The notes: generated by a model not told the origin, from the letters alone. DNA of 64,000 bases from Promethearchaeota archaeon (GCA_048938855.1 JBHLLT010000004.1:96001-160000), one strand, 5' to 3'; counted from the stretch's first letter, positions 16,339-55,805 are shown. A program made the numbers and translations.

Positions 16339-16354
16339 TATTTAAAGAAAAAAA
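16339..16354 (-). promoter_or_regulatory. block-specific promoter TTTTTTTC-TTTAAATA
   Basis: Exact motif about 50 nt upstream of the roadblock start. Confidence 0.7.
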
Positions 16355-16419
16355 TAAGATAACCAACCAAAAAATATAGGATTTACAGATTTTATTTTGA
16401 ATTTCTTTTTTTCAGATAA

Positions 16420-17712
16420 CTAAGAATCTCCATTATGCTCTGATTCAATATTGAGATCATACCCGCAATTAGAGCAAAACTTTTGGGTACCTCGAAAGAA
16501 TTGTTTTCCACAATTTGGACAAACTCCTATATTTTGAGAATATAGATGAGGTGTAAATAAAGGAATACTCTGTGAATTGTAAAATGTAGTCTCCTGTTCA
16601 ATTGGTTTTGCTACTTCTAATTTACGACGAGATCTTCTTGATGCTATTATAATACTAAGAACTATTACTGTAAGTCCAACAACAGCTATGATAACAATAA
16701 TGATAGTAATATCTAAACCCCCAGGATTACTAGGAGGTGTATCTGCTCCTAACCATATATTTAATTGATCAAATTTGTCCTGATTTAATCGTGTCCCAAA
16801 ATTAGCATCCGTTCCATTTTCATATTCATAGGCATTAATTGTCAAAATATAATAGCTTCCATTCACTTCTTCCCATACTGGACTCCCACTTTGTCCTCCA
16901 GCAGTATCCATCCAATACCAATGATTAAAATTATCAGCACGGTCACCCACGTTTGAATTATAATACATATATTCCCCATTATCTAAATCTCCCGGATATC
17001 CTGCAGTATAGAGAGTTCCTGTATAGATAGGATCTGTTGGTAACGCAGTTTTTCTTCCCATCCATCCTGTTTGATTGCCAATAGTGCGATCAAGAGTGAT
17101 TAATGCCCAATCATGTTGGGGTGCTGCACTTTGAATCCATTCATTATATGTTCGGTAATTTGTAGCGAAGGCAATTCCGAATGGTCTTGCTGGACCTGCT
17201 TTCCCGGGAATTACTCTCACTTGGCTAACCCACCCTCCATGATCATGTATATATACACAATGTCCACATGTTAAAACGTGATATGAATCTACAATCATTC
17301 CAGAACCTATAAACAATGATTGATCTTCAGCAGTTATTTCTAACTTACAAATTGAACTCCATGGATAAGAAGAAGTGTCAGTTATTCTCACCCTACCATC
17401 AGGAGGAAAAACATACGACATTTGAAGCCCTTCATTTTCAAATGTATTGTCGTGATTAGTATGATCACCTAAATATGGGGGAATAGTATTCTGAAAAGAA
17501 TCCTCATCACGAGTGTTAGTGAAATATTGTATTTCTTCTGAATGTGTGAGAACATTGTACCCAACTGTAGAACTAATATTATCTAAAGAAAAACTGGGGG
17601 AAATTGTGTTGTTTTGAGCGAAATTAGTGTGATCCATATTAGTTAACGTAAAAATAAAAGGACTAGCAAGGAAGAATCCAATTAATATACAAATTGAGTT
17701 ATATCTTTGCAA
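16420..17712 (-). CDS. membrane-anchored trypsin-like (glutamyl endopeptidase type) serine protease with C-terminal zinc ribbon
   Basis: Signal peptide, LTCGHC, HDWAL, GGQSGSP, TM helix, CPNC...CSNC. Confidence 0.88.
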   Translation of the reverse strand: MQRYNSICILIGFFLASPFIFTLTNMDHTNFAQNNTISPSFSLDNISSTVGYNVLTHSEEIQYFTNTRDEDSFQNTIPPYLGDHTNHDNTFENEGLQMSYVFPPDGRVRITDTSSYPWSSICKLEITAEDQSLFIGSGMIVDSYHVLTCGHCVYIHDHGGWVSQVRVIPGKAGPARPFGIAFATNYRTYNEWIQSAAPQHDWALITLDRTIGNQTGWMGRKTALPTDPIYTGTLYTAGYPGDLDNGEYMYYNSNVGDRADNFNHWYWMDTAGGQSGSPVWEEVNGSYYILTINAYEYENGTDANFGTRLNQDKFDQLNIWLGADTPPSNPGGLDITIIIVIIAVVGLTVIVLSIIIASRRSRRKLEVAKPIEQETTFYNSQSIPLFTPHLYSQNIGVCPNCGKQFFRGTQKFCSNCGYDLNIESEHNGDS

Positions 17713-17781
17713 GAAATAAATACCTTTTTTACTCTTACATTTAGAAATTAGAATTTATTTATAAAACTAGTAGTTATAAAT

Positions 17782-18729
17782 TTAAAGAAATTGGATGTCA
17801 GATTTTTTTGTAAAATTTAACTCTTTTTCATTTGAATATGCATTTTCTTTAATAAGGACATTTGAAAGTTTAACAGTAGCCCCCTCAGTTATTAATTTCA
17901 AACATTCGACAGCTCGAATTCCCCAGACATTTACTTTAATCGATGCTGACTCATCCGAAAGTATCAGTTTTAACAAAAAAGATTTATCACCATTCTTAAG
18001 TGTTAATTCCTTGAAAAAATCAACCTGTATTTCTCCAGTTATAAATCTTATAAATCCATCCTTTTCAAAAAGGTTTTGAATTGTCCATTTAGATTTCTTT
18101 TTTGAATTCTCTTTTAAAATCTCACTTGAATGTTCTGAAGGTTGATATTTTGCGTTTTTTGAATTTACAATTTCAGGGAGTTTAACATTTTCAGGCGCTA
18201 AAATAATATTACTTTGCCTTCCCAAATGGACTTCTAACTTCCCATCTCTTCCCTTATTTGAATATCCTCCAATTATTTGAATTATTTCTCCCTTCTTAAA
18301 AAGTTCATTTTCCAATATCTCCACATTCTCATTCCATAATACAACCTTAATACAATCAGAATTATCACAGATTTTAAATGAACCAACGCGCCCTGAAGTA
18401 CCATCTTTTTTAATAAAAGCACCAACTTGGAATACTGTTTCGACCATTCCAACAATTACAATATTTCTCATATTTTCCACAATCGAGGAGATAGTTATAG
18501 CAAAATCATTATAGTCTATGATTTCTTCAGTAATATGGTTTAAAATCTCCTTATTCTCTATGGAATCTATATTGACCCCCTGCTCCTTAGCAATTAAATA
18601 TAAAATTGCTGGTTTCGTCATGAATCCTTGAAATTCAGCCTCTTTCTCTGTTATATTTTCATTAATTTCTTGTTCACTTATCCCTGCATCCAATAGTGCC
18701 TGATAAATCTCTTCAGCTCTTTCGACCAT
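17782..18729 (-). CDS. RPA/SSB-like protein with two OB folds
   Basis: DNSDCIKVVLWNE and DESASIKVNVWG OB-fold motifs; archaeal RPA-type N-terminus. Confidence 0.85.
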   Translation of the reverse strand: MVERAEEIYQALLDAGISEQEINENITEKEAEFQGFMTKPAILYLIAKEQGVNIDSIENKEILNHITEEIIDYNDFAITISSIVENMRNIVIVGMVETVFQVGAFIKKDGTSGRVGSFKICDNSDCIKVVLWNENVEILENELFKKGEIIQIIGGYSNKGRDGKLEVHLGRQSNIILAPENVKLPEIVNSKNAKYQPSEHSSEILKENSKKKSKWTIQNLFEKDGFIRFITGEIQVDFFKELTLKNGDKSFLLKLILSDESASIKVNVWGIRAVECLKLITEGATVKLSNVLIKENAYSNEKELNFTKKSDIQFL

Positions 18730-18749
18730 ATTTTTTCATACTCTTAATA

Positions 18750-18989
18750 TTATTCATAAATATATGGAAAATTTCTTTGCCTATTATTAACTTCAAAAGA
18801 AGAATTAAGATTTAGACTTAAAACTCTTGTAATTTCTTCATTGGAATTAACACAACAATTCCAATTATTCACGCTTCTATCATTATTAAGAACTATTCCA
18901 CATTTATTGGAATGGTGTAGACAGACATTAAATCCTCTTCTTCTGCTTGAAGTAATTTCTTCTAATGAAATTTTATTCATTTCTTCCAA
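18750..18989 (-). CDS. small hypothetical protein
   Basis: 79 aa ORF between the block promoter motif and the RPA gene. Confidence 0.45.
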   Translation of the reverse strand: MEEMNKISLEEITSSRRRGFNVCLHHSNKCGIVLNNDRSVNNWNCCVNSNEEITRVLSLNLNSSFEVNNRQRNFPYIYE

Positions 18990-19031
18990 ATGATTATTTA
19001 ATTTTCTTTAGATAGAAGTTAATAGGGATTA

Positions 19032-19047
19032 TATTTAAAGAAAAAAA
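19032..19047 (-). promoter_or_regulatory. block-specific promoter TTTTTTTC-TTTAAATA
   Basis: Exact motif upstream of the 18989 ORF and RPA gene. Confidence 0.7.
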
Positions 19048-19073
19048 TGGAAAAATGAATTAGAACTCTAATT

Positions 19074-19694
19074 TTACTTATTATTTAATTTTTTAATGTA
19101 ATTTGCTGTTAGTCCTATTTTATTTCGGGTTCTGTGAAAAGCATATGCAGAGCAATTACAGAAAACCCTTAAATTAGATTGAATTATTTTATAATGAGCT
19201 TGGGCTAGCTCGTTGTCGAGAAGATCAGTTATGAAAATCACTACAGCAACCTGAGTCATGATCTGTGGTCTAAAACATAATTGACTTAATTTAATCTCTA
19301 ATCTTTTCGCATTTTCCCTTGCTCTTTTATAATCAAATACAGGAGCTAATCGATGAAGTTTATGCAAATATACTCGAACTTTATGAGTTTGATGCCGAGA
19401 ACAGAACAATTTTGCATTTATTCTGAAAAATCTCTTAATTCTAATCAAATCAATTAAAAAGCCTGAAATCATTCTATGAACTATTATTTTTGGGACATTA
19501 GTGGCTTCACTTATCTGATTATATTCAGAATCAGTAAGGGCTCGGACCTTTTCATTATTAGGAGCAAATGTAATGTTGCGAAATAAATAATTTAGTACTA
19601 CTTGACGAGAAGCACTTGAATTTTTAAAAAACTTTACATAATACTCATTTATATCATCTGCTTTAATAATTGGTTGTTTCAGAGTCTGACTCAT
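19074..19694 (-). CDS. hypothetical protein with possible TFB/cyclin-like C-terminal repeat
   Basis: PQIMTQVAVVIFI...IIQSNLRVFCNCSAYAFHRTRNKI has cyclin-repeat HTH-like spacing. Confidence 0.45.
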   Translation of the reverse strand: MSQTLKQPIIKADDINEYYVKFFKNSSASRQVVLNYLFRNITFAPNNEKVRALTDSEYNQISEATNVPKIIVHRMISGFLIDLIRIKRFFRINAKLFCSRHQTHKVRVYLHKLHRLAPVFDYKRARENAKRLEIKLSQLCFRPQIMTQVAVVIFITDLLDNELAQAHYKIIQSNLRVFCNCSAYAFHRTRNKIGLTANYIKKLNNK

Positions 19695-19801
19695 GATTTC
19701 CTCACTACAGCAACTAAATATTAAGTTATCATATTAATGAGTCTATTTAAACAAAAAATAGGCTTTAACTTTCACGAGAATTCATATTTAAAAAAAAAAA
19801 A

Positions 19802-20896
19802 TTATAAAAGATTATCCAAAGTAATTTGGCGTTTTTTTGATTGTTGCTTTTGTTGGAAAAAATGATCTCTACATATCTCGTAATTTTTTTTTAATTTATC
19901 AAGATTTTTTTCCAGACGTTCCTTATTTAAATAGTGTTCTTCACACAATAAAGTGAATATTCTTGATTCATTGGGGGGATTCCACAACAAATTATCGATT
20001 TTTTCATTTACATCTGGGAATAAAAAAATTTTTCTCACTTCTTTAATAATGCTTGGATTTAGTCTACTAAAATCATACTTGTTATACTCTTTTAGAATAA
20101 CAGACTCTAGAGATTTGTACTTTCTAATTAGAGTTAATGCTTTCTTTGGACCAACTCCAGATACACCTACATTATAATCCGTACCGATAAGTATCCCGAT
20201 ATCAACTAATTGAAACAGTGAAATTCCCAAATTTGATAAATTTTTCTGCAAATCTATTATAGCAGGTTTTATCTTTTGATATTGCCATTTGCCTTGTACT
20301 TTTCTTTGCAATGATTTCGAAAGATTTTGGATTATATATGGACACCCTAATAATATAGAATCATAATCTTGTGAGTTAGAATAATGGGCAAACCCTTTCT
20401 TAACCAAATGAGTACACTGAGACTCTGCTGATGCCGGTGATTCTATGTAAGGAACACCTAATGCCCCAAGAAGTTGTTTAGATTCTCTTATAATATTTTT
20501 CCACATATATTCCCCGCTGAGTGCAATTTCTCTTGCTAAACCTTTATTATTCTCTCTAATTGCCTTTTCATACCATTTTTGAGTGAAAAGGAAGTCTTTT
20601 AATTGATCTTTTGTTATTAATTTTTTAAGAATTGAGACTTTTCCATCAAAACAGAAAATAGGAAAAATATTTTTTGAATAGTAAAAATTTACTCGATATA
20701 AAAGACCATATAGATGAGATATCGGTCTCTGTGTTCGATCTAATATAAGTTTTGTGTTAGAATTACCTGGATTCTTTAACGTGAAGTTAAATAATCCCAT
20801 TATTATATTTGGAGCATCAACTGCTATAATTTTCCCTCTTAAATCTTGAATATCAATTATCTTTGAGACAATTAAATTTTGTATTTTAACTCCCAT
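19802..20896 (-). CDS. flap endonuclease-1 (FEN1/XPG family) homolog
   Basis: MGV N-terminus, AVDA, FDG, AESQC, SQDYDS, GTDYN.GVSGVGPKKA, C-terminal PIP-like QITLDNLL. Confidence 0.92.
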   Translation of the reverse strand: MGVKIQNLIVSKIIDIQDLRGKIIAVDAPNIIMGLFNFTLKNPGNSNTKLILDRTQRPISHLYGLLYRVNFYYSKNIFPIFCFDGKVSILKKLITKDQLKDFLFTQKWYEKAIRENNKGLAREIALSGEYMWKNIIRESKQLLGALGVPYIESPASAESQCTHLVKKGFAHYSNSQDYDSILLGCPYIIQNLSKSLQRKVQGKWQYQKIKPAIIDLQKNLSNLGISLFQLVDIGILIGTDYNVGVSGVGPKKALTLIRKYKSLESVILKEYNKYDFSRLNPSIIKEVRKIFLFPDVNEKIDNLLWNPPNESRIFTLLCEEHYLNKERLEKNLDKLKKNYEICRDHFFQQKQQSKKRQITLDNLL

Positions 20897-21078
20897 GTCT
20901 TATTATCAACAAAATAATTTAATAAAAAGAAAAAATGAAATTAATTTTTGTAGATCCAAAATGAAATTCACTTGTACTGTTTTTAGAGATATAATTTAAT
21001 TTAAGGTGAATGACACAAATCAAATGACGGTATTTCAGCAGAAGATTAACTTTTGAGAAAGAGGTTAGAATTAGTTGC

Positions 21079-21453
21079 TTACTCTTGAATATCCTTTAGA
21101 TCTTCATCAATTGATTTTAAAAATTTTTTTTGAGTCATTTCATCTTTGAAGTCATCTTCAAATGAATCTGCTAAAGCTTCTAAATCTTGATCTGACATGA
21201 GATTATCTTCATCAATTTCACTGTATAGAAATTCTTTAAAAAACTCAAAACCACAATCCCTACATTCAATCAGCTCTCCATAATCTATATATTCATTGGA
21301 TTGACAATTAGGACAGCGAAATTCTGAAGGCATTTTTGGATGAAATATCATAAGTAGATATGTAATAACTAATAATATGAACACTGAGAATATAAACCTA
21401 TCATCATAAATGTAAAAAATCATGCAAATAGGTAAAATTGCGGGAATATACAT
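21079..21453 (-). CDS. membrane-anchored zinc-ribbon protein
   Basis: GGTGA ribosome-binding site, hydrophobic N-terminus, CPNC...CRDC, acidic tail. Confidence 0.6.
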   Translation of the reverse strand: MYIPAILPICMIFYIYDDRFIFSVFILLVITYLLMIFHPKMPSEFRCPNCQSNEYIDYGELIECRDCGFEFFKEFLYSEIDEDNLMSDQDLEALADSFEDDFKDEMTQKKFLKSIDEDLKDIQE

Positions 21454-21523
21454 TTCACCTTCTGTTTTCTAGCTTAGATTTATCTTTTCTTTTTAAATAA
21501 AAATAAGATCAAATATTTTCTGC

Positions 21524-21538
21524 TTTTTCCTTTAAATA
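21524..21538 (+). promoter_or_regulatory. block-specific promoter TTTTTCC-TTTAAATA
   Basis: About 55 nt upstream of the unannotated + strand gene at 21591. Confidence 0.65.
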
Positions 21539-21590
21539 CAATCAATTAAATGTTTAATTAATATAAATAGTAAAAGGCAAAGTGATGTGA

Positions 21591-21974
21591 ATTTCGAAAA
21601 AACACGAATTTGATACTAGATATATCGTAAAACCGAAATATGAACCATCTCGAAGGATTATTGCTATATTCTTTTGTATTTTATTATTTGTTTTCGTATT
21701 TTTTCCAGTTTTTGGGTTAAATTGGAGATACCAAATTGGAGGTGCATTATCTAGTATTATTGATGGAATAGGTACATTTTCTATAGCAATTGGTGGACTT
21801 CTTACTTTAGTGGGTTTTGTGGGAATTTTTACAAGGAGTTCGCATTGGGCTAGAAATGTAATAATTGGGATAGCGTTATTATGGATTGGATGCTGGTGTA
21901 CTGGATCAGTAGTTGATTTCTTTGGTATATTAATAGGGGATTCCACCTCTTCGGGGGGTGGTGGATATCATTAA
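21591..21974 (+). CDS. three-TM membrane protein with apparent ATT start (missing from ORF track)
   Basis: 127 sense codons, ISKKHEF...RIIAIFFCILLFVFVFFP...GGGGYH; GTGATG site and promoter upstream; in-frame TGA immediately before the ATT. Confidence 0.75.
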   Translation: MSKKHEFDTRYIVKPKYEPSRRIIAIFFCILLFVFVFFPVFGLNWRYQIGGALSSIIDGIGTFSIAIGGLLTLVGFVGIFTRSSHWARNVIIGIALLWIGCWCTGSVVDFFGILIGDSTSSGGGGYH

Positions 21975-22117
21975 TAATTCTTTTGCGTGGAATCTTATTT
22001 CTGTTTTTTATCCTTAATTATGTTCGAAAGATTGAACACAATTATCTTAATAAGGTATTTTAACGGTATCATTATATGAAATTAAGGTTATATCTCTAAG
22101 AAATTTAAAGATTAAAA

Positions 22118-22768
22118 ATGAAAATAAGAAGAAACAAAGTCTTCAACCCATTGAAAAAAAGGAATATCCGAATTATCTTCTTTAATCCTTATTCACCTTT
22201 CATTAAATCAGTAGGATATTTAATTATCATATTTTCGTTTCAATTTCCTTGGTATTGTTCACATACTTATTATTTTAACAGACCTACTATTATTTATTAT
22301 CATGTCAGCCAAATTTTAAATGCTCCAAATGTTTATTTTTGCTTCATACTTTTAGGTGTTTTTGGTGGATTTTTATTAAATTGTTTATCTTTAGTTCGTA
22401 AACTAAACTTAGGATACATCCATTTAACATTGTTAGCTTTGTTAGAACTAATCTTAGTTATCCCAATGATGTGTTATCCAATTATCTGTGTAGAATTTTA
22501 TTATGGATATATTTGGTATCTCGAAGATATAAATAGGTATTTTATTCAATGTGGATATTATATTAACGTTTTTGGCAATCTAATATTATTACTAGATGTA
22601 ATAATTAAAAGGGGTCTCATTTCTCATTATTTTAGAAATTGGAAATATAATTCTCTTTTAATAAGAAAATTGGAAAATATTGACAATACAATTCAACATT
22701 TGCATGTTAAAAGAGTATCAGTAAATCCTAAAATACTTAATTCCTGTATGAACTCCACAAATAGCTAA
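22118..22768 (+). CDS. hypothetical membrane protein
   Basis: Several hydrophobic segments; 3' end overlaps the convergent gene by 51 nt. Confidence 0.55.
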   Translation: MKIRRNKVFNPLKKRNIRIIFFNPYSPFIKSVGYLIIIFSFQFPWYCSHTYYFNRPTIIYYHVSQILNAPNVYFCFILLGVFGGFLLNCLSLVRKLNLGYIHLTLLALLELILVIPMMCYPIICVEFYYGYIWYLEDINRYFIQCGYYINVFGNLILLLDVIIKRGLISHYFRNWKYNSLLIRKLENIDNTIQHLHVKRVSVNPKILNSCMNSTNS

Positions 22769-22936
22769 TAATATAATAGAGACTATAATAACTCCCGTCA
22801 TCTTATGCTTCTGAAATTGACCCAAAAAGAGAAAACCTAATATTCCCACTATTAAACCAAGCATACCGATTATTGACCCTAATGCCATTAAAAATTCTAT
22901 CGCTTCTACAATACCATCAAAATAATCGAATATCAT
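22718..22936 (-). CDS. small two-TM protein, VirB2/CedA1-pilin-like architecture
   Basis: Amphipathic N-helix, Gly-rich TM, basic loop, second TM; promoter variant at 22961-22975. Confidence 0.6.
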   Translation of the reverse strand: MIFDYFDGIVEAIEFLMALGSIIGMLGLIVGILGFLFLGQFQKHKMTGVIIVSIILLAICGVHTGIKYFRIY

Positions 22937-22988
22937 AGTAATTAATAATATTATCAGATCTTTATAAATAAAAAATTGAACTAACTAC

Positions 22989-23004
22989 TTTTTTTCTTTA
23001 AATA
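22989..23004 (+). promoter_or_regulatory. block-specific promoter TTTTTTTC-TTTAAATA
   Basis: Exact motif upstream of the 23043 gene. Confidence 0.7.
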
Positions 23005-23042
23005 TTCGAGAATTACTTATATTCAATCATTATACAAATTCG

Positions 23043-23369
23043 ATGTTTATTATGAGAAAAATAGATGAGATTGGAATCTGTCCAAATTGCGATTGTACGA
23101 TTTCTATTTTCAAAACTCGGAATTACAAGCGATTTGCAAAATGTGAGATATGCGGTATGTCTTATGCATTACCAAAACGAGGCTCTATTAATAATTCTGC
23201 TTTACTTTGTCCAAGGAGTAAGTTTCCAATTTTAATTGTAGATAAAAAAGACCATAAAGCATATTTTTGGACTGACCAGCCTTGTTTTGGTTGTGTTTCA
23301 TTTGACAAGTGTGAACAAATAAAAGATCTAATCTCTGAATTTACTGAACTTAAGGTGTATGGATATTAA
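23043..23369 (+). CDS. double zinc-ribbon protein (topoisomerase C4 zinc-finger-like)
   Basis: IGICPNC...RFAKCEICG.SY.LP...CP...CFGC....C. Confidence 0.7.
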   Translation: MFIMRKIDEIGICPNCDCTISIFKTRNYKRFAKCEICGMSYALPKRGSINNSALLCPRSKFPILIVDKKDHKAYFWTDQPCFGCVSFDKCEQIKDLISEFTELKVYGY

Positions 23370-24369
23370 TCGGTTTAAAGTTATCATATTTACCATTTTT
23401 ATAATTCTTTCAAGTATTTCAATGGGCTCAACGAATTTTTTTATCCTTTTTGTTAAAGCAAGTGAAAATGAAGCTCTTCACACAAATTCTATTGGCGATG
23501 TAATAACGGATAAGGTTTATAATTTTACAGTGGAGGAACCAATTTTAGTATTTAACGATGTCATTCTTTTCGAGAAATATTATTATTATGATATTATGGC
23601 TGTGGTGGTGACTCCTCATACCTGCGATTTGAATATAACTTTATTTGATCCAGAAGGCGATCCGTATGAAATTACTTATGAGTCAAATATGGTTCAGGAT
23701 GATTATAGAATTATTCCTTTTGGAACAGCACTCACAGGAAATTACACCATATTATTTGAGGCAATACTTATAGAAAATCTTAATATTCATATAAAAATTG
23801 AACGAGGGTTCAAATGTCTTTATGATGAAATAGCTGGTGATGAACTTCAAAAATTGAAATATTATGACGTGAGAAAGTTCAAAAATGGAACTAAAATTGT
23901 CTTTAACACAACCTTTAAAAGTGATTGGTATTATAAATTTTATTTTGAAAGAGTCTCTCCAATCTCTAAAAAATTGAGCTGTTATGTTGTAATGGAGCAC
24001 GACATTATAAGTTCTATTGGAATACCATATACAATTTATAGAAATGAATCTCTTGAATTTCAAATATCCTCTATATACAGATTTGGTACAGCTGTCGAAG
24101 GACTTTATATTATGAATTTAACGATATATTGTAATGTTCCCTGTGTAAACATCGCTTTTGCAGTTGTAGAAAGTTACAGGATTGCGGATGAGATCGATCC
24201 GAATGATGACGATCCACCCCCAGATATACCAGGAAATAACACTTCGGGAATGGATGTAATTATCCCAACTGCATGGACAGTAGGTATGATAGTGTTTGTA
24301 GGAAGCGCTGTAGCTATACCTATCTTAATCGTTGTCAGTCGAAAAAAGAAAAATCCAATAACGATTTAA
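23359..24369 (+). CDS. secreted, C-terminally anchored surface protein
   Basis: Signal sequence, beta-rich body with N-x-T/S sequons, DDDPPP linker, TM followed by RKKK. Confidence 0.75.
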   Translation: MDINRFKVIIFTIFIILSSISMGSTNFFILFVKASENEALHTNSIGDVITDKVYNFTVEEPILVFNDVILFEKYYYYDIMAVVVTPHTCDLNITLFDPEGDPYEITYESNMVQDDYRIIPFGTALTGNYTILFEAILIENLNIHIKIERGFKCLYDEIAGDELQKLKYYDVRKFKNGTKIVFNTTFKSDWYYKFYFERVSPISKKLSCYVVMEHDIISSIGIPYTIYRNESLEFQISSIYRFGTAVEGLYIMNLTIYCNVPCVNIAFAVVESYRIADEIDPNDDDPPPDIPGNNTSGMDVIIPTAWTVGMIVFVGSAVAIPILIVVSRKKKNPITI

Positions 24370-24454
24370 TTTTTTTATCTTTTTGATTTTAATGCTAAGA
24401 GTATATATTTCCAAAAGTCAAAGAATTATATTTTATTCTTCTATCGCTTTTAAT

Positions 24455-24850: not shown

Positions 24851-24868
24851 CCCTTCAATATGGTTTTT

Positions 24869-25372: not shown

Positions 25373-25568
25373 TATTATTTTACACTAATAATTATTGTTA
25401 TATCTTATTTACACCAAAAGAAGTTCGTATCTTAAGGGTTTTGATTATCTAATATTAAAAATCATAGAATGTAGATTAAATAAAATATGTATAGTTAGCT
25501 AATTATTAATGTTTTAAAATTGAAGAATTAAGATAAATTTCACATTAAAAAGATAAAAAAATAAGAAT

Positions 25569-26798: not shown

Positions 26799-26857
26799 CC
26801 TTCTGGTATATCAACTCCATTTTTAAAAATTTTGTTGATATACACTTCTATTTAGTA

Positions 26858-26873
26858 TATTTAAAGAAAAAAA
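26858..26873 (-). promoter_or_regulatory. block-specific promoter of the radA paralog
   Basis: Exact TTTTTTTC-TTTAAATA motif. Confidence 0.7.
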
Positions 26874-46393: not shown

Positions 46394-46396
46394 GAA

Positions 46397-47985: not shown

Positions 47986-47986
47986 T

Positions 47987-50900
47987 GTGACAAAAGATTT
48001 CTCATATGAATCTGTATCAGGAATAACCAATTTTGGAAAGGAAGATAATAGAAAAAAATATATGATACTCGAAGAGAAAGAAGAAAAAAAAAGATATTTA
48101 AGAATATGGAGCACAAATCCATCATTTAAAGATACGAATAATAAATTTTCATTAGTAAAAACTGCTTTTTTACTAATTTTATCTCTCTTTATTATTATAT
48201 CAATGTATATTTTAAATCAGCAACTAATTATTTCAATTATTACTGGACTTTTATGCGGGGTTTTATTTATCATAGTGTTTTATGATGAGATCTATACATT
48301 GAAATACTTAATACCTTTTGTATTTAAGAACACTGTATCTTTTAATCCATTTGAGAATATTGTTTTTTGGTTAAACAAAAAAGATTCTGCTACATTATAC
48401 CTCTCTAACAGAAGAGATACGGTTCACATGGCTATTAGAATATTTCAGATAACAGTGATTCCCGAAAATATTCATTCTGCTATTCATCAGTTTATAAAAG
48501 CGCTGAGTTCTAAAAATTTAAGGTTATCATATTCATATCAAGTTATTCAAAAACCAATTATTTCTACATTGCAAGAAAATATGTCAAAGGAGACAGCTAT
48601 AAGTTCCTTGGAGTCAAGAGAAGCAAAAATCTATTTCTCTATATTTTATAATTCAATTGGATTACTTACTAACCATAAATTGGATCAAATACAATATTTT
48701 ATCAAAAAACATTCTGTAGATCTTAAAAGTAATCTTGTTAGTAATTTTCACCACTTTAAAGTTAAAATACTCACAGGAAATTCATTAGTTAATGCTTTAA
48801 GAACATTTTTCATTCAAGAGAAGTCTGATCAAGATAATTTTGAAAGCAAAAAAGAAACTTTGAAAGAATTTAAACCAAGATTTTTAGCTAAATTCTTAAT
48901 GTGGATTACGTTGATTGTTTATTTTGATTTTGTATTTTTTTCAATGGAACTGTTTGTTTTATACATCATTTTCATCAATTTGGGCTTAATTACAATACTG
49001 GTGTTAATTTGGTGGAGATCAATATTATTCCAATATACAAAATCTAAATTATTACAAGATGATGATATTTTAATTATAAATCCATTCAAGAATGTTTTTT
49101 TTTACCATTTTAGACAGTTCCCCTATACATTATTTGTTCATATTAACAATCAAATTCTCATTGGAATGAAGATGGTTAATCTCAAGTATATTTATCAAAC
49201 CCCCTTTTGTCTTCTTAGTAAGTTTATTGAAAGTCTGAATAATCATAAAATATCTTTTAGTTATACACTAAAAAATCAACCCATTGATTATTATGAGTTC
49301 TATAAAAAAGGGTTGAAATACATCAATGAAAAACATAAATCACTCATACTTTGGAGAGATGATACGAAAATTAAAGATGCCATTCAAGCTGAACATTGGT
49401 TAAGTTACCGTTATGGAATGTGGTATAGTATGCTTACTATGACCATAAATAGTTATAGATTCTCCAATTCACTTGATAATGGTATAATTTCCGAAATGGA
49501 AGATGAGTTAACTATTAAGATTGATGCCCTAAGAGGAGCATTTAATATTAACTTTCAAGGCTATGAAATTGAGGATTTAAAAGCACACAATTTAATTTCA
49601 GGGTACATGTTTTCGACCTTGAAGAACAACTTATTTCAGTTAATTGGTAGCCACCTTAATTATGTCATGTTACAAGGAACATCTATGTATCCCCTGTCAA
49701 CGATTGTAGATATTCTTAAAAAGGGGACTAAAACAAAAATCGCAGCTGAATTTAACACTCCCCTCTATTTAGAAAATCACATCACTATTGGACACACAAT
49801 TAATACTGAAGTATTAGAACCTGAAATACCTGTAGGGTTTACTTTAGACCAATTGAAGAATTTACTTATAGTAAATGGGAAATCAGAAACAAGAGATACC
49901 ATTTCTATGAAAATTGTTTTAGAATTGATAGAGTCAAAAGTTCCTTCTCTAATTTTTGATTTTACAGGAAACTGGTCTAAGTTGTACAGCTATTTTGAAG
50001 ATTCTACGTTTAAAAAGGATATATTGCATTTTAAATATGGAAGTGCTTTCATAATCGATCCTACTAAATCAGACATCCCTTATGATCCTCATAATACAGA
50101 TTATTTAGAATTTGTATTTGATGCGTTTGGATTAGCGTTTAAGAAAGGTGAGAGAACAATTGAAATGTTTCGAAATACTCTCCAAAAAAATCCTGATATG
50201 GATTTGGGTTCAATTCGTATGGCCTTACAGAATCAAAGTGAATGGGAAAAAAGCCCAATAAATGACACTTTGCTTTCATTGTTTTCAGATTTTACCCAAG
50301 ATGATTTGAGTTTCTTTCAAGTGATACAAAAAGACAGTATCGTAGCAAATCAATTCATTCAAAATTCAAAGACTATCATAATCGACCTTTCTTTTCTAAG
50401 AGAATTAAATAAGAAAATATTTTTAACGTTCATTATTCTGGCGAAAATTATTCATTATGTTAAAGAAAACAGAGATTTCCATGAAAAATTTATAATAATT
50501 CCAAGTATTGATATTTTTTTTGATTCCTACTTCCTAGAGTTAAAAAGGAATTATGATAAAGTAGATCTTTTCTTAAAGCCTTTACTAGAAAATAATTTTG
50601 GTCTTATTCTGTCAGCAAATCAAATACATTATCTCCATACCAACTTTTTACTTTATTTTAATAATATCATCTCACTTAAAGCCACTGATGTCAGAGATGT
50701 TTCAATTTTGCGTAATCTAATGAATTTACAGGAAATTGAGGGCATTGGATATTATACTAAGAGCCGAAATCAGACATACCAAATAGGGTATCTAAAGAAT
50801 ATGAAAGATAATGAAGTTTTAATTCGGAGAGAAGATATTGACCAACCATTTCCGGCATACATAGAATGGAAAGAGATATCTGAAAAAAATCCGCTCTCGT

Positions 50901-51820
50901 ATGATAAAATAGTGAAGTTAATGGAACAACAGGGATACGATATAAAATTTACAGAGAGAAGAATATTAGAACAAGCAAAAAAAATGCTTTTTGAGATAGA
51001 TCTAGGACACTATATTATTTATTTGGATGAGGTTATCAAATTTTTAGATGAGATTCAAACAATTGACCAGATTGGAAATCTCTATAAGCATAAGCTAAGA
51101 TCTCAATTAAAAGAGATAATTTATCCTAAAGCATCCCAAAAAACTAGTAAAAAAGAACACATTAAAAGAATTAGAGATGATCTATTAAACATTTTAATCA
51201 AACACGGATATTTAGTAGAAGACCATCCAAGAAGAGCGAGTGGTTCAGAAACTTTAAGAACTTCTTATTCTATAGGAGATAGATATCAAGAAGCATTAAA
51301 TGATTATTATAAAACAAAAGGACATACGCAAACAGATGTGAATATTGAAATATTAGAAAAATCTACAGAAAAATCAAATTTAGATAATATATTTCAAGAA
51401 AAAACTCGAAAATATATTGTTCAACAAAAAAATTTAAAAGATGCCTTAATGCGCGAGTTTTCTGATTTTAATTATGATTTATTTAAAATTTATAGTTATA
51501 TTAACCGAGGAAATTATAAAGGTGCTTTAAAAATAGAGCAAGGTTTAATTAATAGATTTTTAAATAATGTAATTTCACATTATTATAATATAGAAAGTCC
51601 TATATCTCATGATACATTAGAGAGGTTCCTAACTCTATTAGGAAGTATTGCAGATTTTCCTTTAACAAGACAAGAACTCTTAGGTTATATAGAACATTAC
51701 CAAGTAATAGATTTAAAAAATAGCAATTTAGAAGTTTTGGCTAGAGAAATTTATCAATTTATATATAATTTCTTTGATGAAATTCAGTACTATATATTTG
51801 AGGGGAAAAATAATAACTAG
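47987..51820 (+). CDS. membrane-bound VirB4/HerA-like protein with degenerate Walker motifs
   Basis: Two TM hairpins, then ITIG...LLIVNGKSETRD, LIFDFTGNW, IIIDLS, FIIIPSID, LILSANQ in HerA/VirB4 motif order. Confidence 0.7.
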   Translation: MTKDFSYESVSGITNFGKEDNRKKYMILEEKEEKKRYLRIWSTNPSFKDTNNKFSLVKTAFLLILSLFIIISMYILNQQLIISIITGLLCGVLFIIVFYDEIYTLKYLIPFVFKNTVSFNPFENIVFWLNKKDSATLYLSNRRDTVHMAIRIFQITVIPENIHSAIHQFIKALSSKNLRLSYSYQVIQKPIISTLQENMSKETAISSLESREAKIYFSIFYNSIGLLTNHKLDQIQYFIKKHSVDLKSNLVSNFHHFKVKILTGNSLVNALRTFFIQEKSDQDNFESKKETLKEFKPRFLAKFLMWITLIVYFDFVFFSMELFVLYIIFINLGLITILVLIWWRSILFQYTKSKLLQDDDILIINPFKNVFFYHFRQFPYTLFVHINNQILIGMKMVNLKYIYQTPFCLLSKFIESLNNHKISFSYTLKNQPIDYYEFYKKGLKYINEKHKSLILWRDDTKIKDAIQAEHWLSYRYGMWYSMLTMTINSYRFSNSLDNGIISEMEDELTIKIDALRGAFNINFQGYEIEDLKAHNLISGYMFSTLKNNLFQLIGSHLNYVMLQGTSMYPLSTIVDILKKGTKTKIAAEFNTPLYLENHITIGHTINTEVLEPEIPVGFTLDQLKNLLIVNGKSETRDTISMKIVLELIESKVPSLIFDFTGNWSKLYSYFEDSTFKKDILHFKYGSAFIIDPTKSDIPYDPHNTDYLEFVFDAFGLAFKKGERTIEMFRNTLQKNPDMDLGSIRMALQNQSEWEKSPINDTLLSLFSDFTQDDLSFFQVIQKDSIVANQFIQNSKTIIIDLSFLRELNKKIFLTFIILAKIIHYVKENRDFHEKFIIIPSIDIFFDSYFLELKRNYDKVDLFLKPLLENNFGLILSANQIHYLHTNFLLYFNNIISLKATDVRDVSILRNLMNLQEIEGIGYYTKSRNQTYQIGYLKNMKDNEVLIRREDIDQPFPAYIEWKEISEKNPLSYDKIVKLMEQQGYDIKFTERRILEQAKKMLFEIDLGHYIIYLDEVIKFLDEIQTIDQIGNLYKHKLRSQLKEIIYPKASQKTSKKEHIKRIRDDLLNILIKHGYLVEDHPRRASGSETLRTSYSIGDRYQEALNDYYKTKGHTQTDVNIEILEKSTEKSNLDNIFQEKTRKYIVQQKNLKDALMREFSDFNYDLFKIYSYINRGNYKGALKIEQGLINRFLNNVISHYYNIESPISHDTLERFLTLLGSIADFPLTRQELLGYIEHYQVIDLKNSNLEVLAREIYQFIYNFFDEIQYYIFEGKNNN

Positions 51821-52172
51821 TGACCAGAGAAAAGAATTTCTTTATGAAATGTTAGAAAAGATTGTTTTTAATGAAGCTCAATTAACAATCTTGAAAAATG
51901 GAATTGAAAAGGTAGCAAATGGTTATCTTACTCCAAAAGATTTAAGAAAACAAATTATAGAACTAAGAGTGAAACTCATTGAAGACTTGATAGAGTTTTT
52001 CCCATTTTACCTTAAACAGAACTTAATTGAAAATAAGTTATTAAATTTTACTGATTCAAATGAATCATCATTAATATCAGCAGAATTAGAGGAGAGAAAT
52101 AATTTACTTGAAGAAGTTGGATGTCGAATAAATAATATCTATAGAAAATTAAAAGAAAAATACAATGTATAA
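51774..52172 (+). CDS. hypothetical helical protein
   Basis: Last gene of the operon; true start may be ATA near 51810 after GAGGGG. Confidence 0.6.
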   Translation: MMKFSTIYLRGKIITSDQRKEFLYEMLEKIVFNEAQLTILKNGIEKVANGYLTPKDLRKQIIELRVKLIEDLIEFFPFYLKQNLIENKLLNFTDSNESSLISAELEERNNLLEEVGCRINNIYRKLKEKYNV

Positions 52173-52298
52173 AAAATATATTTAAAGGAAAAAAGATCCG
52201 TAATTCTATTTCTTTTTTATTTAAAAGTACTTGCCAAAATTTTAGTTAAATAATATTGAAACTCTATATTTGACTGAAAAAAGAGAAAACAAAATCAT

Positions 52299-53642
52299 AT
52301 GATCTCAGGAGAATTAATTTCAAATTCAGTAATATCTCTTAATGAATTATTTCCTAATTTCACAAATCAATTCATTATACCATTTGAAAAGGTAGTAGAA
52401 CTAGATATCCATAATGGGATGCATCTAAATTTTAAACTATGTGACAGAGATCAAAAAAACAAAGTACCTCCTATTTTACGCTTAGCTAACATAGAAGATG
52501 CAGAGGAAATTGTTGGGATTTACAAGGAATTATATAATTGTACATATCCATACAAAGAAATGGAAGATATTAATGAAGTCCAAAAGATGATACAAAATCC
52601 ATCATTTAAATGGATAATTTATCAAGACGCTTCTTTTAAAATTGCAGGTTGTATAACTTTTGTCTTAGATTTTAACAATAGAAGAGGTTACATTCGGGGA
52701 TTTATGCTTAAAAAGGAATATCAAGGATATATTGATATAACAAAAGCGATGATCGGCTCGATGTTATGCATGATCCATAGTTTTAAAGATCGAATATTTA
52801 ATTGGTATGTAGAAAACAGAACTGCTCATGCAAAATCCCAATATTCAATGTATGTATGTGGAATTGCCCCGATAGGATTTTATCCAAATAAAGATATTTT
52901 TGAGGGAAAAGTCGAATCTGATTTAATGCAAATTTTGTATGATGAGAAAGCATTGCGTCAGTATAGATCTCCAAAAATACCTACATTAATTCATGCTGTT
53001 GAGGGATGTTATTTATTTTCTCATAAACGGTATAATTTAGGTAACTATAAAATAAAATCCCCCAAAATCGTTCTTGATTACAAAAAAATAAAAGAATTAA
53101 AAACCAATTTAAAAAGAAATATACAAAAAGATGATTTTGGGTATGAAACTATATTATTTTCATTTAAAAAAGCAAATTCTTATTTTCAATTTTTGTACAC
53201 GCCTACAGTTTCAAATTTTGAAAAAACTATCTATGAAGTTTCATCCTTAGAAGAATTATTTGTATTTGCCCAAGAATTTATGAGATGGAAAAAAAAATTA
53301 AGGGCTCGCTATTGTGAAATATTTGTTTCAGCCTATCAACCTGAACATCAACAAATTTTTTATGACGCAGGATTGTCTCCTCGAGGATATATTCCCAGCT
53401 GGATTTTTAATAATGAAGATCATGTGTTCGAGGATTTTATTCTTTTTAATTGCCATGATGGACAAATTGGAGACAATATAGAGTTAATCCAAGAAGGGTG
53501 GGATCTACTTGATGTCTTTCATATTAAGAGCTCACAATCATTAGTAAATAGGGAAATGAAATCAATTAATTCTAACTGTAAAAAGATATTAGAGCTAAAA
53601 AGGAAAAAAACACACGTGGGTCTTAATTTAGGGGAATTCTAA
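52299..53642 (+). CDS. GNAT-fold protein (probably tandem domains)
   Basis: LRLANIEDAEEIVGIY...YPY, KEYQG, GFYP and GYIP motifs. Confidence 0.65.
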   Translation: MISGELISNSVISLNELFPNFTNQFIIPFEKVVELDIHNGMHLNFKLCDRDQKNKVPPILRLANIEDAEEIVGIYKELYNCTYPYKEMEDINEVQKMIQNPSFKWIIYQDASFKIAGCITFVLDFNNRRGYIRGFMLKKEYQGYIDITKAMIGSMLCMIHSFKDRIFNWYVENRTAHAKSQYSMYVCGIAPIGFYPNKDIFEGKVESDLMQILYDEKALRQYRSPKIPTLIHAVEGCYLFSHKRYNLGNYKIKSPKIVLDYKKIKELKTNLKRNIQKDDFGYETILFSFKKANSYFQFLYTPTVSNFEKTIYEVSSLEELFVFAQEFMRWKKKLRARYCEIFVSAYQPEHQQIFYDAGLSPRGYIPSWIFNNEDHVFEDFILFNCHDGQIGDNIELIQEGWDLLDVFHIKSSQSLVNREMKSINSNCKKILELKRKKTHVGLNLGEF

Positions 53643-53662
53643 GAAATTTTTGTTTTTTTTTA

Positions 53663-54481
53663 TTATTTCTTGTATAAACCTAAGAATATTATTATAAACA
53701 CAAATATGTCTACTGATTCAACTATTATGATATACATTGCTACTTCACCTAAAATATTCTGTATAATTGGTCTTAATATATTTGAAATCAAATATAAAAA
53801 GAATCCAAGTGTTAAAACGCCTGGTTTAACAATAGTAAGACGCCTTAATCTGTAAGCTAAGAAAAAGATATACACAATTCCAATTAATGATGGAATAACA
53901 ATAGCAGGTAAAATCATACCCATAATTGTATTATTTGGAGCTATAAGAATTGCAACAGATTCAATACATATAATAATCAGTATAAGAGTAACTCGCAATT
54001 TATTCATATATTCTTTATTTTTCAATTTTTGATATCTATCTTCTAGTCTAAAAAAGATAATTTCGAAGCCCAGGTAAATTAAGGGGGCTACTTCAAATAT
54101 TATGGTAAAAAATCTGAATTTAAGGAACAATAAAACAATATCATCACTAAATGTAAAAAAAGTAAGATCCCAAAGTAAATCAATTACTTTTCCAAAAATT
54201 AGAATAAGGAAGAACAAACCTAATAGGAAGGGGATATCTGATAAATATTGTGCTTCTTGTTTAAACCATTTATTAAATAAATAAACAGTTGTGATAATTA
54301 AGATTATTATTCTAACGGATATTACTAACAGGACCTCAAATGCGCCTTCATAGATTTGAAAGGCTTGAATAATAAGTGGCCAGTTAAGAAGATATAGAAC
54401 ACCAATACTAATAATAGCTAAAATAATGCATACAAGTAATAGTAATTTATAACGTCCTTTTTTTGATAATTCCATATTCAT
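53663..54481 (-). CDS. multi-pass membrane protein
   Basis: About 8 hydrophobic segments. Confidence 0.75.
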   Translation of the reverse strand: MNMELSKKGRYKLLLLVCIILAIISIGVLYLLNWPLIIQAFQIYEGAFEVLLVISVRIIILIITTVYLFNKWFKQEAQYLSDIPFLLGLFFLILIFGKVIDLLWDLTFFTFSDDIVLLFLKFRFFTIIFEVAPLIYLGFEIIFFRLEDRYQKLKNKEYMNKLRVTLILIIICIESVAILIAPNNTIMGMILPAIVIPSLIGIVYIFFLAYRLRRLTIVKPGVLTLGFFLYLISNILRPIIQNILGEVAMYIIIVESVDIFVFIIIFLGLYKK

Positions 54482-54524
54482 TGATATAAATTAGTCTTTT
54501 TAAATTGAACTAAAATAAATATAC

Positions 54525-55661
54525 CTATTTTTCAAATAAATGTATTATCGATTCTATTTGCCTTTTATTTGGATCTTGTTCAATTTGGGTATGGATTAGT
54601 TCCATAAGTTTAGATTGCGAGATACTAATACATTCTAAAAAATCACTTACTTCTTTTTCTTTAAATTTATTCTTAAGGATAAGTGGAACTACAATCCTAA
54701 GTGTTCTCAGCCACTTTTTCCTTTCTTGAGGATTTTGGCGTACTAGTTCTGCATATTGATATGCATACAGAATTCCTCCATATCTATGTAAATCATAAAA
54801 TGTAGCTGCATGTACTACGTTACAATTCGTTAAAAGTGGATCCGCATGGCCTTTTTTGATGTAATTTTTAGATTCAACAAGATTGACAATCTTTTGTTCT
54901 CTATACGGTATTACGTGATATGGTAAAAGGACTCTAGGTAGGTTTTCAATTTTTAATTCCTCATCATTCAAGTAGCATTCTGAATCAGACTGATCAAAGA
55001 AAAGATTATTAAATAATATCATAGGTTTCCACACGTGAATTATTTCATTTCTTGGTATTTCATAATAATATCGAAAAATTTGATCAGGAGAATATCCAAA
55101 TAAAACATAAGGAATATCTTTTTTTATCGCTTGTTTTACCACAATACTGTGGATTAGATCGGAACAAGAGTCACATATAACTCTCGTTAAAAAAGTATCA
55201 TTTGATTTATGATTGTAAAAATGCCATTTATAGAGCTTAGTAAATGTAGGTATGCAATCTTCTATAAGTAAATGATCTACATTAATCTTTGCTAATGTAT
55301 CTTTCATATTTTGCTTCGCAATTTGAGTCATGAAGCCCGTATCAGAAGTTACTGCTAAGGGGTTTAAACCTAAATTATTTACAAGATAGTCTAACAGAGC
55401 CGTAGAATCTTTTCCTCCAGAATATCCTAAGATACAATCATATTGAACATTTCCATGGTTTTTTTGCATATTTTTAACAATCCGATTCCAATCTATAAGA
55501 GCTTTTTCTCTTATTTTAGAATCAATTTTAGTTCGTGACCAGTTGATATTTTTATGTTCATGATCAGAGCAAAAATCACACAACCCTTCTGAATTTAAAT
55601 GAACTCCTAAGAATCCATCTGGTAATATGCATTTTCTACAAATGTTTTGTTGCTCTAACAT
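54525..55661 (-). CDS. PP-loop ATPase, N-acetyl-sugar amidotransferase-like
   Basis: CRKCILP...GLCDFC, YDCILGYSGGKDS, CDSC. Confidence 0.8.
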   Translation of the reverse strand: MLEQQNICRKCILPDGFLGVHLNSEGLCDFCSDHEHKNINWSRTKIDSKIREKALIDWNRIVKNMQKNHGNVQYDCILGYSGGKDSTALLDYLVNNLGLNPLAVTSDTGFMTQIAKQNMKDTLAKINVDHLLIEDCIPTFTKLYKWHFYNHKSNDTFLTRVICDSCSDLIHSIVVKQAIKKDIPYVLFGYSPDQIFRYYYEIPRNEIIHVWKPMILFNNLFFDQSDSECYLNDEELKIENLPRVLLPYHVIPYREQKIVNLVESKNYIKKGHADPLLTNCNVVHAATFYDLHRYGGILYAYQYAELVRQNPQERKKWLRTLRIVVPLILKNKFKEKEVSDFLECISISQSKLMELIHTQIEQDPNKRQIESIIHLFEK

Positions 55662-55695
55662 ATAAACACCTTTTATAAACTACATAATTCTGTTC

Positions 55696-55805
55696 TATTT
55701 AAAGGAAAAATAAATATAAGCTGTAAAAAAGAAGGCAAATTTTGATACTAAAAATTCAGCTAAGTTTCAAGAAAATTTGATAAAAAGAATTTTTTTCTTT
55801 AAATA
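55696..55805. promoter_or_regulatory. divergent pair of block-specific promoters
   Basis: Motif at 55696-55710 (-) and 55790-55805 (+). Confidence 0.7.

Follow-up and report, generated by a model that had tools for sequence, protein, structure and literature searches.

A promoter type found almost nowhere else in the genome of a Loki-type Asgard archaeon appears to drive a 45-kb optional gene island whose divergent TFB most likely reads it

Why should a large block of genes in an archaeal chromosome begin, gene after gene, with a promoter element that the remainder of the genome almost never uses? This question was raised by a sequence-only reading of a 64,000-nucleotide stretch of DNA (hereafter ‘the window’; Promethearchaeota archaeon, GCA_048938855.1 JBHLLT010000004.1:96001-160000). 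That reading noted a T-rich element in place of the usual BRE in front of many genes, and proposed that a TFB paralog encoded within the block acts like an alternative sigma factor. We therefore examined whether the element is real, whether it is restricted to the block, and whether the TFB paralog is a plausible reader.

The element is real. The 15-mer TTTTTYC-TTTAAATA occurs 11 times in the block and 16 times in the whole 3.95-Mb genome, and its density is thus about 215 times higher in the block. Shuffled sequences predict 0.04 sites. When only intergenic DNA is counted, 11 sites reside in the island and 2 elsewhere, whereas 0.02 are expected (Poisson P about 6e-27). A compositional artefact is rejected by the shuffles, by a reversed-pattern control and by the intergenic-only background. 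The sequences flanking the 15-mer are unrelated, so it is a short cis-element and not a repeat or MITE. All 11 exact sites exist on the strands originally reported, although two coordinates were off by one (22990 rather than 22989, and 55791 rather than 55790), and all eight reported close variants are present with 1-3 mismatches in the right orientation. Eight of the 11 exact sites lie 21-62 nt from a start codon, one is a second promoter 187 nt upstream of a RadA-like gene, and two (21524+ and 52179-) face no ORF. As had been judged by eye, the element is absent from 1-12 kb and 57-64 kb apart from chance-level hits with 1-2 mismatches, for example at 9220 inside an ORF.

The block proves to be a discrete presence/absence island that is larger than the range originally given. 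In a relative (G004; related genomes are denoted here by G numbers), the two flanking Ldh_2 orthologs are adjacent, 157 nt apart, and homology to that empty site ends near 11,995 and resumes near 57,030. The features of the island are as follows, where genes are designated by w and a number or by their coordinates.

11995..57030: the island, a 45-kb presence/absence segment between two tandem Ldh_2 paralogs (10782-11933 and 57041-58147).
16339..16353, minus strand: exact motif; promoter of w15738 (ATG at 16286, 52 nt downstream) and probably of the co-directional genes down to 12294.
19032..19046, minus strand: exact motif; promoter of small ORF 18750-18980, the RPA-like gene 17782-18729 (RPA by NCBIfam) and the trypsin-like/Zn-ribbon gene 16420-17712.
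19744..19799, minus strand: two 1-mismatch motifs (19744, 19785) upstream of w19074, both conserved in G011 and G030.
20920..20934, minus strand: 3-mismatch variant 23 nt upstream of the FEN1/XPG-like gene 19802-20896 (leaderless geometry).
21524..21538, plus strand: exact motif with no ORF downstream, pointing antisense into w21554; conserved in G007, G012 and G021.
22961..23004: back-to-back pair, variant 22961(-) for the 72-aa ORF 22718-22936 and exact 22990(+) for operon 23043-24850.
26858..27000, minus strand: two exact motifs (26858, 26986), 59 and 187 nt upstream of the RadA-like gene 25569-26798; both conserved in G007 and G011.
28121..28135, minus strand: exact motif 21 nt upstream of w27701 (leaderless geometry).
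31437..31451, minus strand: 2-mismatch variant 21 nt upstream of the operon w30672, w30306 and RadB-like ATPase 29594-30328.
31690..31883, plus strand: near-invariant control region of the TFB-like gene.
31884..33113, plus strand: the island TFB, with Zn-ribbon, B-reader/linker, two predicted cyclin folds, an altered HTH recognition helix and an extra C-terminal domain of about 120 aa.
33203..33217, plus strand: 3-mismatch variant upstream of the 975-aa alpha/alpha-toroid protein 33271-36198; exact or 1-mismatch in G012, G019, G030, G001 and G006.
36206..36220, plus strand: 3-mismatch variant 21 nt upstream of the operon w36242, Hef-like helicase 36861-39032 and DUF1922 protein.
39963..39977, minus strand: 2-mismatch variant driving an unlisted small ORF (SD plus ATG 38 nt downstream).
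44265..44333: divergent pair, variant 44265(-) for w43911, the Hel308-like gene 41361-43745 and w41058, and exact 44319(+) for the membrane operon 44396-52172 (HhH membrane protein through the 1277-aa HerA/VirB4-like protein, whose atlas neighbours serve as a lead only).
52179..52227: back-to-back pair, exact 52179(-), which faces no ORF and is antisense to the operon end, and a 3-mismatch variant (+) 71 nt upstream of w52299; the pair is conserved in G003, G006, G007, G009, G002 and G025.
55696..55805: divergent pair of exact motifs, 55696(-) for w54525 (WbuX-like amidotransferase) and w53663, and 55791(+) for w55857.

The element has the layout of a core promoter with an unusual upstream half. 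Its TTTAWATA TATA box is invariant, and an unselected, initiator-like A (75 %) lies 22 nt after the TATA box, where the transcription start would be expected. At the BRE position, which is the seven bases abutting the TATA box, the island carries T at -7 to -2 and C at -1 (18 % purine). In contrast, host promoters have 57 % purine, with A at 0.5-0.57 at positions -3 to -5. An attempt to derive a host promoter logo anchored on tRNA genes was not useful because aragorn found only 13 tRNAs. The element is not a general host promoter and is not used upstream of housekeeping genes; only 7 of 76 exact or 1-mismatch sites outside the island look like promoters.

Phylogenetic footprints indicate that the element is maintained with its genes. 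The same orthologs carry it at the same spacing in G007, G011, G003, G012, G030, G001 (two copies), G019, G002, G025, G006, G009 and G021, although the proteins are only 40-90 % identical. In the closed genome G006, the island is split by 750 kb and the motif follows both parts, which argues for a trans-acting reader. Motif and TFB paralog co-occur across relatives, and wherever a contig spans the w30672-w33271 interval the TFB gene is present (12 of 12 cases). However, the motif and the TFB gene share one island, and therefore their co-occurrence is not independent evidence. A search for counter-examples revealed several assemblies that have island genes with the motif but no detected TFB gene (G008, G009, G021 and G035). 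In G009, G021 and G035 the contigs break before the TFB position, making these cases uninformative rather than contrary, and the G008 hit is an unrelated paralog context.

The TFB-like protein is a true but very divergent member of its family, and fold and profile methods were needed to identify it. Pfam yields only a weak Zn_Ribbon_TF match, and a phmmer search against PDB finds only the ribbon (1pft, E 0.56). A six-frame search of the genome with the Pfam TFIIB model (PF00382) finds 24 repeats in 12 host genes and none in the island at E <= 0.001. With the predicted structure, however, the top Foldseek hits are TFIIB/TFB chains, including the P. woesei TFB core (1ais_B and 1d3u_B; TM about 0.6, prob 1.00). 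The structure model has only moderate confidence overall (mean pLDDT 55), but reaches 70-86 over the cyclin core (residues 100-290). Likewise, hhalign against 8 host TFBs gives 98 % over 259 columns (E 1.5e-13), and aligns the ribbon and the B-reader/linker segments with those of host TFBs. The four Cys of the ribbon are invariant in 12 orthologs.

The recognition helix of the C-terminal cyclin/HTH domain of TFB is known to read the BRE in the major groove just upstream of TATA (PMC4581349; PDB 1d3u). All 12 canonical TFBs of the host genome keep the T-[ILV]-R-x-R core of this helix. In the island protein the aligned helix reads S-T-I-Q-x-Q, such that both Arg residues are replaced by Gln; the peptide IRMSTIQAQVK, singled out by the sequence-only reading, is encoded at 32709. 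The helix is the longest invariant stretch in 12 orthologs that are 55-83 % identical overall. Covariation between helix and motif was uninformative inside the genus because both are invariant there. A distant genus has a linked TFB-like gene, also without Arg-x-Arg but with a different helix, and looser T-run promoters, but this sample is too small.

The TFB gene itself is not in the regulon, because it has a host-type promoter. An alignment of 12 genomes shows that its near-invariant ~200-nt control region holds a perfect palindrome at 31696-31711, an inverted repeat at 31779-31797, a host-type purine BRE plus TATA at 31812-31829, a conserved block at 31834-31855 over the expected TSS, and an SD-like GTGATC. 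These elements are unique in the genome. A structured RNA is not supported for this region, as there is no Rfam hit and the RNAalifold result is weak (-8.7 kcal/mol, covariation -0.15). The earlier suggestion that the selenoprotein genes have ordinary TATA contexts and may be separate from the regulon is only partly right. The cluster at 28.3-29.5 kb has a host-type promoter, but the unit comprising w27701 and the 27384-27587 gene has an exact motif.

Every prediction of the alternative-TFB proposal that could be tested by computation was borne out, and we consider the following explanation, with moderate confidence, to be the best available. The block is a dispensable chromosomal island carrying extra copies of RadA, a RadB-like ATPase, RPA, FEN1, Hef and Hel308, plus a membrane operon, small selenoproteins and many orphan genes. 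Nearly all of its transcription units start from one private core-promoter class, and the most likely reader of the T-rich element is the island's own TFB, which keeps the Zn-ribbon, the B-reader and both cyclin folds and so could recruit RNA polymerase. In the absence of binding, TSS or expression data, that this TFB binds the motif and that the genes are co-expressed are still inferences. The host-type promoter and palindromic operators of the TFB gene suggest a two-step cascade, in which a signal de-represses or activates the TFB gene and the new TFB, with host TBP and RNAP, then fires the island promoters together. The purpose of the programme is also inferred, and is probably recombination, repair or DNA exchange. 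A stronger version, in which this TFB has re-specified BRE recognition through the change from Arg-x-Arg to Gln-x-Gln and alone turns on the entire self-contained programme, remains tentative.

The alternative that survives best, although we consider it unlikely, is that the T-run/C element is bound by a different regulator that sits next to TBP and works with a host TFB, whereas the divergent TFB has another role, for example as a TFB3-like co-activator or a competitor. In Sulfolobales, the T-rich damage-response promoter box ANTTTC is bound by Orc1-2 rather than by a TFB, and TFB3 acts without binding DNA itself (PMC6061795, PMC6101594). The island encodes other possible DNA binders, namely Zn-ribbon proteins at 21079, 23043 and 39036, and back-to-back motif pairs at 29-34 nt spacing could suit a dimeric binder. 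However, many sites are single, and the element occupies exactly the seven bases where the TFB HTH must sit; a second protein there would clash with any TFB. In addition, the island TFB, unlike TFB3, keeps both cyclin folds and an invariant HTH that is altered at the base-contacting positions.

It is also possible, but improbable, that the block is an integrated mobile element or provirus and that the motif is simply its own promoter type, as in phage early/late promoters. This view is compatible with the TFB model but would change what the programme is. Consistent with it are the clean empty site, the 0-4 copies per genome, the fast divergence of many genes, the fact that all repair genes are paralogs of host genes, and the TFBs known to be encoded by Asgard viruses and MGEs (bioRxiv 10.1101/2021.07.29.453957). 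However, no integrase was found in Pfam scans, no tRNA target or significant boundary repeats were found, there are no PHROG hallmark genes, and no relatives were found on IMG/VR contigs or in phage records. The island occupies the same chromosomal site in several genomes, is split into two chromosomal parts in G006, and is present in 30 of 36 genomes of the genus and linked in another family. Nor is it recognizable as a known anti-phage defence system, because PADLOC gave only generic helicase-core similarities (HamB, Cas3, PbeA) for the Hel308-like and Hef-like proteins, without system partners. Finally, use of a rare host promoter type read by one of the 12 canonical TFBs is doubtful, because, despite some variation in their helices and a handful of promoter-like near-matches outside the island (for example upstream of a host RPA-like paralog), all 12 keep the T-[ILV]-R-x-R core, only 2 exact intergenic sites lie outside the island where a host class should appear at host genes, and genomes with the TFB-like gene have about twice as many exact motifs as those without.

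We found no paper describing this island, but several known systems offer parallels. In the Sulfolobales DNA-damage response, TFB3 and Orc1-2 drive Ups pili, the Ced DNA importer and recombination genes (PMC6101594, PMC6101591, PMC6061795); there too a tightly regulated TFB paralog is tied to DNA-transfer and recombination genes whose promoters share a short T-rich box. However, TFB3 is truncated and lacks the DNA-binding cyclin core, whereas the island TFB is full length, its box lies exactly at the BRE position, and its proposed targets are clustered in one optional island and include whole paralogs of RadA, RPA, FEN1, Hef and Hel308. No Orc1/Cdc6 gene was seen by Pfam among the island ORFs. 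The Sulfolobus TFB2 cell-cycle regulon (bioRxiv 10.64898/2026.09.06.749720) and the multiple TFBs of Halobacterium show that full-length paralogs direct subsets of promoters in the manner of sigma factors. For TFB2, the BRE is reported as similar to that of TFB1, with only the spacing differing, whereas the island sequence is pyrimidine instead of purine and the helix has lost both conserved Arg.

Compared with the canonical P. woesei complex (PDB 1ais/1d3u), the island retains an 8-bp TATA box, an abutting 7-bp upstream element, an initiator-like position about 25 nt from the TATA centre and a ribbon plus two-cyclin protein, but differs in the T-run ending in C, the Gln-x-Gln helix, the extra C-terminal domain and a protein that falls below the Pfam TFIIB threshold. 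The proposed logic parallels that of bacterial and phage alternative sigma factors, in which a replaceable initiation factor switches on a gene block while its own gene is read by the housekeeping factor, although the protein context (TFB/TBP/archaeal RNAP) differs and the case here lacks experimental evidence. Accessory TFB homologs are also encoded by Asgard viruses and MGEs and by rudiviruses (bioRxiv 10.1101/2021.07.29.453957; PMC13700489), but those elements are viruses or plasmid-like MGEs, and no matching promoter class was reported for them.

Alternative TFBs are known, but their promoter specificities have been subtle or indirect, which has left open whether archaeal and eukaryotic-type initiation factors can act as real promoter-selectivity switches, as bacterial sigma factors do. 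The island offers a clean, testable case that combines a sharply distinct BRE-position element, a matching change at the two base-reading residues of the TFB helix, a compact and private target set, and an obvious upstream control region. Because it sits in Asgard archaea, it bears on how TFIIB-family paralogs (TFIIB, Brf, Rrn7) could have acquired separate promoter classes. Its cargo, a second recombination toolkit plus a DNA-translocase-like membrane complex, hints at a regulated DNA-exchange or repair programme in this lineage.

The pattern TTTTTYC-TTTAAATA has 11 exact matches in the window (contig C70, 96001-160000, of the genome designated G000), all of which lie between 16.3 and 55.8 kb, whereas dinucleotide-preserving shuffles predict 0.04. 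The complete 3.95-Mb assembly (93 contigs, 30 % GC) contains only 16 exact matches, and therefore the density in the block is about 215 times that of the rest of the genome. When only intergenic DNA is counted, using a rough gene call, 11 sites are found in 7.4 kb of island spacers and 2 in the other 728 kb, compared with 0.02 expected (P about 6e-27). The sequences that flank the 15-mer are unrelated, and the motif is therefore a short cis-element and not a dispersed repeat. Outside the island, most exact and 1-mismatch sites lie inside coding sequence, and only 7 of 76 look like promoters. One of the few promoter-like near-matches outside the island (G000 contig C31, about 8988, minus strand) carries a T-run without the C followed by the same TATA box, and resides 54 nt upstream of the ORF for the host paralog of the island’s RPA-like gene. 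The eight close variants listed in the sequence-only reading are all present with 1-3 mismatches and in the right orientation, although two of the coordinates in that reading are off by one base.

Eight of the 11 exact sites, and most of the variants, lie 21-62 nt upstream of a start codon on the correct strand. The island is syntenic in many genomes of the same genus. In 12 genomes of this collection (G007, G011, G003, G012, G030, G001 with two copies, G019, G002, G025, G006, G009 and G021), the motif recurs upstream of the same orthologs at the same distance, which is about 60 nt for the RadA-like gene, 21-22 nt for genes w27701 and w30672, about 40 nt for w23043, and 45-52 nt for w55857. 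The proteins themselves are only 40-90 % identical. An alignment of the region upstream of the RadA-like gene from ten genomes reveals the 15-mer as an invariant block within diverged sequence, followed by an SD and the start codon.

We pooled 125 sites from 14 island copies, which revealed an additional signal that was not used for selection. A T-rich stretch is followed by an A (75 %) located exactly 22 nt after the last TATA base. This would place the TATA centre near -26, which is the normal archaeal geometry. For several genes the A of the ATG falls on this position, as would fit leaderless mRNAs. Some further motif contexts are as follows.

21524-21538 (plus strand), 26986-27000 (minus strand) and 52179-52193 (minus strand): three exact motifs with no ORF downstream, of which two point antisense into the 3' end of a gene or operon and one is a second promoter 187 nt upstream of the RadA-like gene.
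22961-23004, 44265-44333, 52179-52227 and 55696-55805: back-to-back divergent pairs of island promoters.
About 39560-39925 (minus strand): an unlisted small ORF with an SD, starting 38 nt downstream of the motif variant at 39963.

All three positions in the first group are conserved in relatives, and these motifs may therefore drive antisense or non-coding transcripts. The divergent pairs likewise represent a recurrent and conserved architecture, in which the two 15-mers in relatives start only 28-38 nt apart.

The promoters of the host genome are organized differently. Across the genome, TTTAAATA exhibits no T-rich upstream preference outside the island, and strand-asymmetric k-mers in host upstream regions point to a purine-rich box in front of TATA. 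The seven bases before host TATA boxes are 57 % purine, with A at 0.5-0.57 at positions -3 to -5, whereas in the island they are 18 % purine, with T at -7 to -2 and C at -1. The island therefore has the opposite polarity at the position where TFB reads the BRE.

The genome carries 12 canonical TFB genes, which is a large paralog set, and none of these resides in the island. All 12 encoded proteins end with a helix of the form T-E-x-T-[ILV]-R-x-R-x-K. By sequence, the protein encoded by the island ORF at 31884-33113 matches only the TFIIB Zn-ribbon, and does so weakly. However, an AlphaFold model built from 12 orthologs has pLDDT values of 70-86 over residues 100-290, and its best structural matches are TFIIB and TFB chains, including the P. 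woesei TFB core in the TBP-DNA complexes 1ais and 1d3u. A profile-profile comparison with eight host TFBs gives 98 % probability (E 1.5e-13) over 259 columns running from the ribbon to the HTH, and places the island segment G-I-R-M-S-T-I-Q-A-Q-V-K opposite the host segment G-V-T-E-V-T-L-R-S-R-Y-K. Thus, the two Arg residues that are invariant in host TFBs are invariant Gln in the island protein. This helix is also the longest invariant stretch in orthologs that are otherwise 55-83 % identical, and copies at 44-46 % identity retain it as well. The protein has an extra C-terminal region of about 120 aa that was modelled poorly. The sequence-only reading, which had described a TFB paralog with a changed recognition helix, is therefore correct on this point. 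This helix of the C-terminal cyclin/HTH domain is known to insert into the major groove just upstream of TATA, where it reads the BRE (PMC4581349).

The TFB-like gene was found in 24 of 36 genomes of the genus, and the island’s 1277-aa protein in 30 of 36. Exact motifs are roughly twice as frequent in genomes with the TFB-like gene, and are well above a reversed-pattern control. Wherever a contig spans the interval between w30672 and w33271, the TFB gene is present. In assemblies where the gene was not found, the island contigs break before that point (G009, G021 and G035) or the hit is an unrelated paralog (G008), and these assemblies therefore provide no counter-example. In the closed genome G006 the island is split, such that the TFB gene and its neighbours lie at 963 kb whereas the right half lies at 206-222 kb. 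Motifs accompany both parts, which fits a diffusible reader. In another family of the order (genomes G050 and G048), a 25 %-identical TFB-like gene is still linked to homologs of the island genes. Its helix again lacks Arg-x-Arg, and several island promoters there have long T-runs abutting the TATA box, although the exact 15-mer is absent. The related island of this distant genus also contains a tandem array (L043-L044; G050 contig C1, about 1,744,380-1,745,340) with a 120-nt period and at least 8 copies. All of these linkage observations are consistent with the island TFB being the reader of the motif, but the evidence is circumstantial because the TFB gene and the motif travel on the same island.

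The TFB gene itself has no T-run motif, and instead is preceded by a control region that is almost invariant in 12 genomes and far more conserved than the protein. The components of this region are as follows.

31690-31883: the control region, comprising roughly 200 nt upstream of the start codon.
31696-31711: a perfect 16-bp palindrome, with a matching reverse-complement half-site about 38 nt away.
31779-31797: a second inverted repeat.
31812-31829: a purine-rich box plus TATA of the host type.

In addition, the region includes a conserved block over the expected start site and an SD-like sequence, and the start codon alternates between ATG and TTG among genomes. These elements are unique in the genome. 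They show no convincing RNA structure and no Rfam match, and therefore they are probably operators. Such an arrangement is expected of a master regulator that is transcribed by the host machinery under tight control, and suggests that the island operates as a cascade.

The island encodes a full-length RadA with an extra C-terminal HhH domain, a RadB-like ATPase, an RPA-like protein, a FEN1/XPG nuclease, a Hef-type helicase and a Hel308-type helicase, each of which is a 30-42 % identical paralog of a host gene located elsewhere in the genome. It also carries genes for a 975-aa alpha/alpha-toroid protein, a trypsin-like protease, an Arf/Ras-like GTPase and small selenoprotein candidates, as well as a five-gene membrane operon. 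In a protein atlas, the nearest neighbours of the 1277-aa protein are all HerA/DUF87/FtsK/TrwB-type ATPases, including CedB, but the scores are 0.88-0.89 and this similarity should be regarded only as a lead. The boundaries of the island and some of its features are as follows.

10782-11933 and 57041-58147: two Ldh_2 paralogs, 70 % identical, between which the island lies.
About 11,995 to 57,030: the island, a 45-kb indel.
12110-12240: a GC-rich element of about 132 nt at the left edge of the island.
25569-26798 (minus strand): the island RadA gene, whose product passes the RadA equivalog model, has the normal N-terminal part, and carries the extra HhH domain at residues about 349-399.

In G004, a genome that lacks the island, the two Ldh_2 paralogs are adjacent tandem genes (L061; contig C175, 6075-8480), which provides a clean empty site without flanking repeats. 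The GC-rich element is 84-90 % conserved at the same edge in G011, G030 and G001, and a 39-nt piece of it recurs elsewhere inside other island copies and once on G000 contig C22 (about 36927). This element may be a small RNA gene, although it has no Rfam hit. We found no integrase, tRNA, att repeats, virus hallmark genes, viral-contig relatives or defence-system signatures. We interpret the segment as an optional, mostly vertically inherited chromosomal island rather than an active mobile element, although past mobility is not excluded.

The closest functional analogy is the DNA-damage response of Sulfolobales, wherein TFB3 and Orc1-2 drive the Ups pili, the Ced importer and repair genes through a T-rich promoter box (PMC6061795, PMC6101594, PMC6101591). 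In that system, however, TFB3 is truncated and the box is read by Orc1-2. Sulfolobus TFB2 is a full-length paralog with its own regulon, but its BRE is reported as similar to that of TFB1 (bioRxiv 10.64898/2026.09.06.749720). TFB genes on Asgard viruses and MGEs are also known, but no matched promoter class was reported for them (bioRxiv 10.1101/2021.07.29.453957; PMC13700489). We found no paper describing this island or its promoter.

The observation is confirmed, and we have very high confidence that the promoter class is real. How this class is read is less certain. Perhaps another factor reads the box, although we consider this unlikely, and reading by a host TFB is more doubtful still. 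A mobile-element framing is equally improbable, and would not be exclusive of the TFB model. Interpretation of the block as an alternative-TFB regulon, as proposed in the sequence-only reading, is the best-supported model, and we hold it with moderate confidence. Alternative TFBs are already known, whereas the example inferred here would be distinguished by a re-specified BRE and by a private, clustered regulon.
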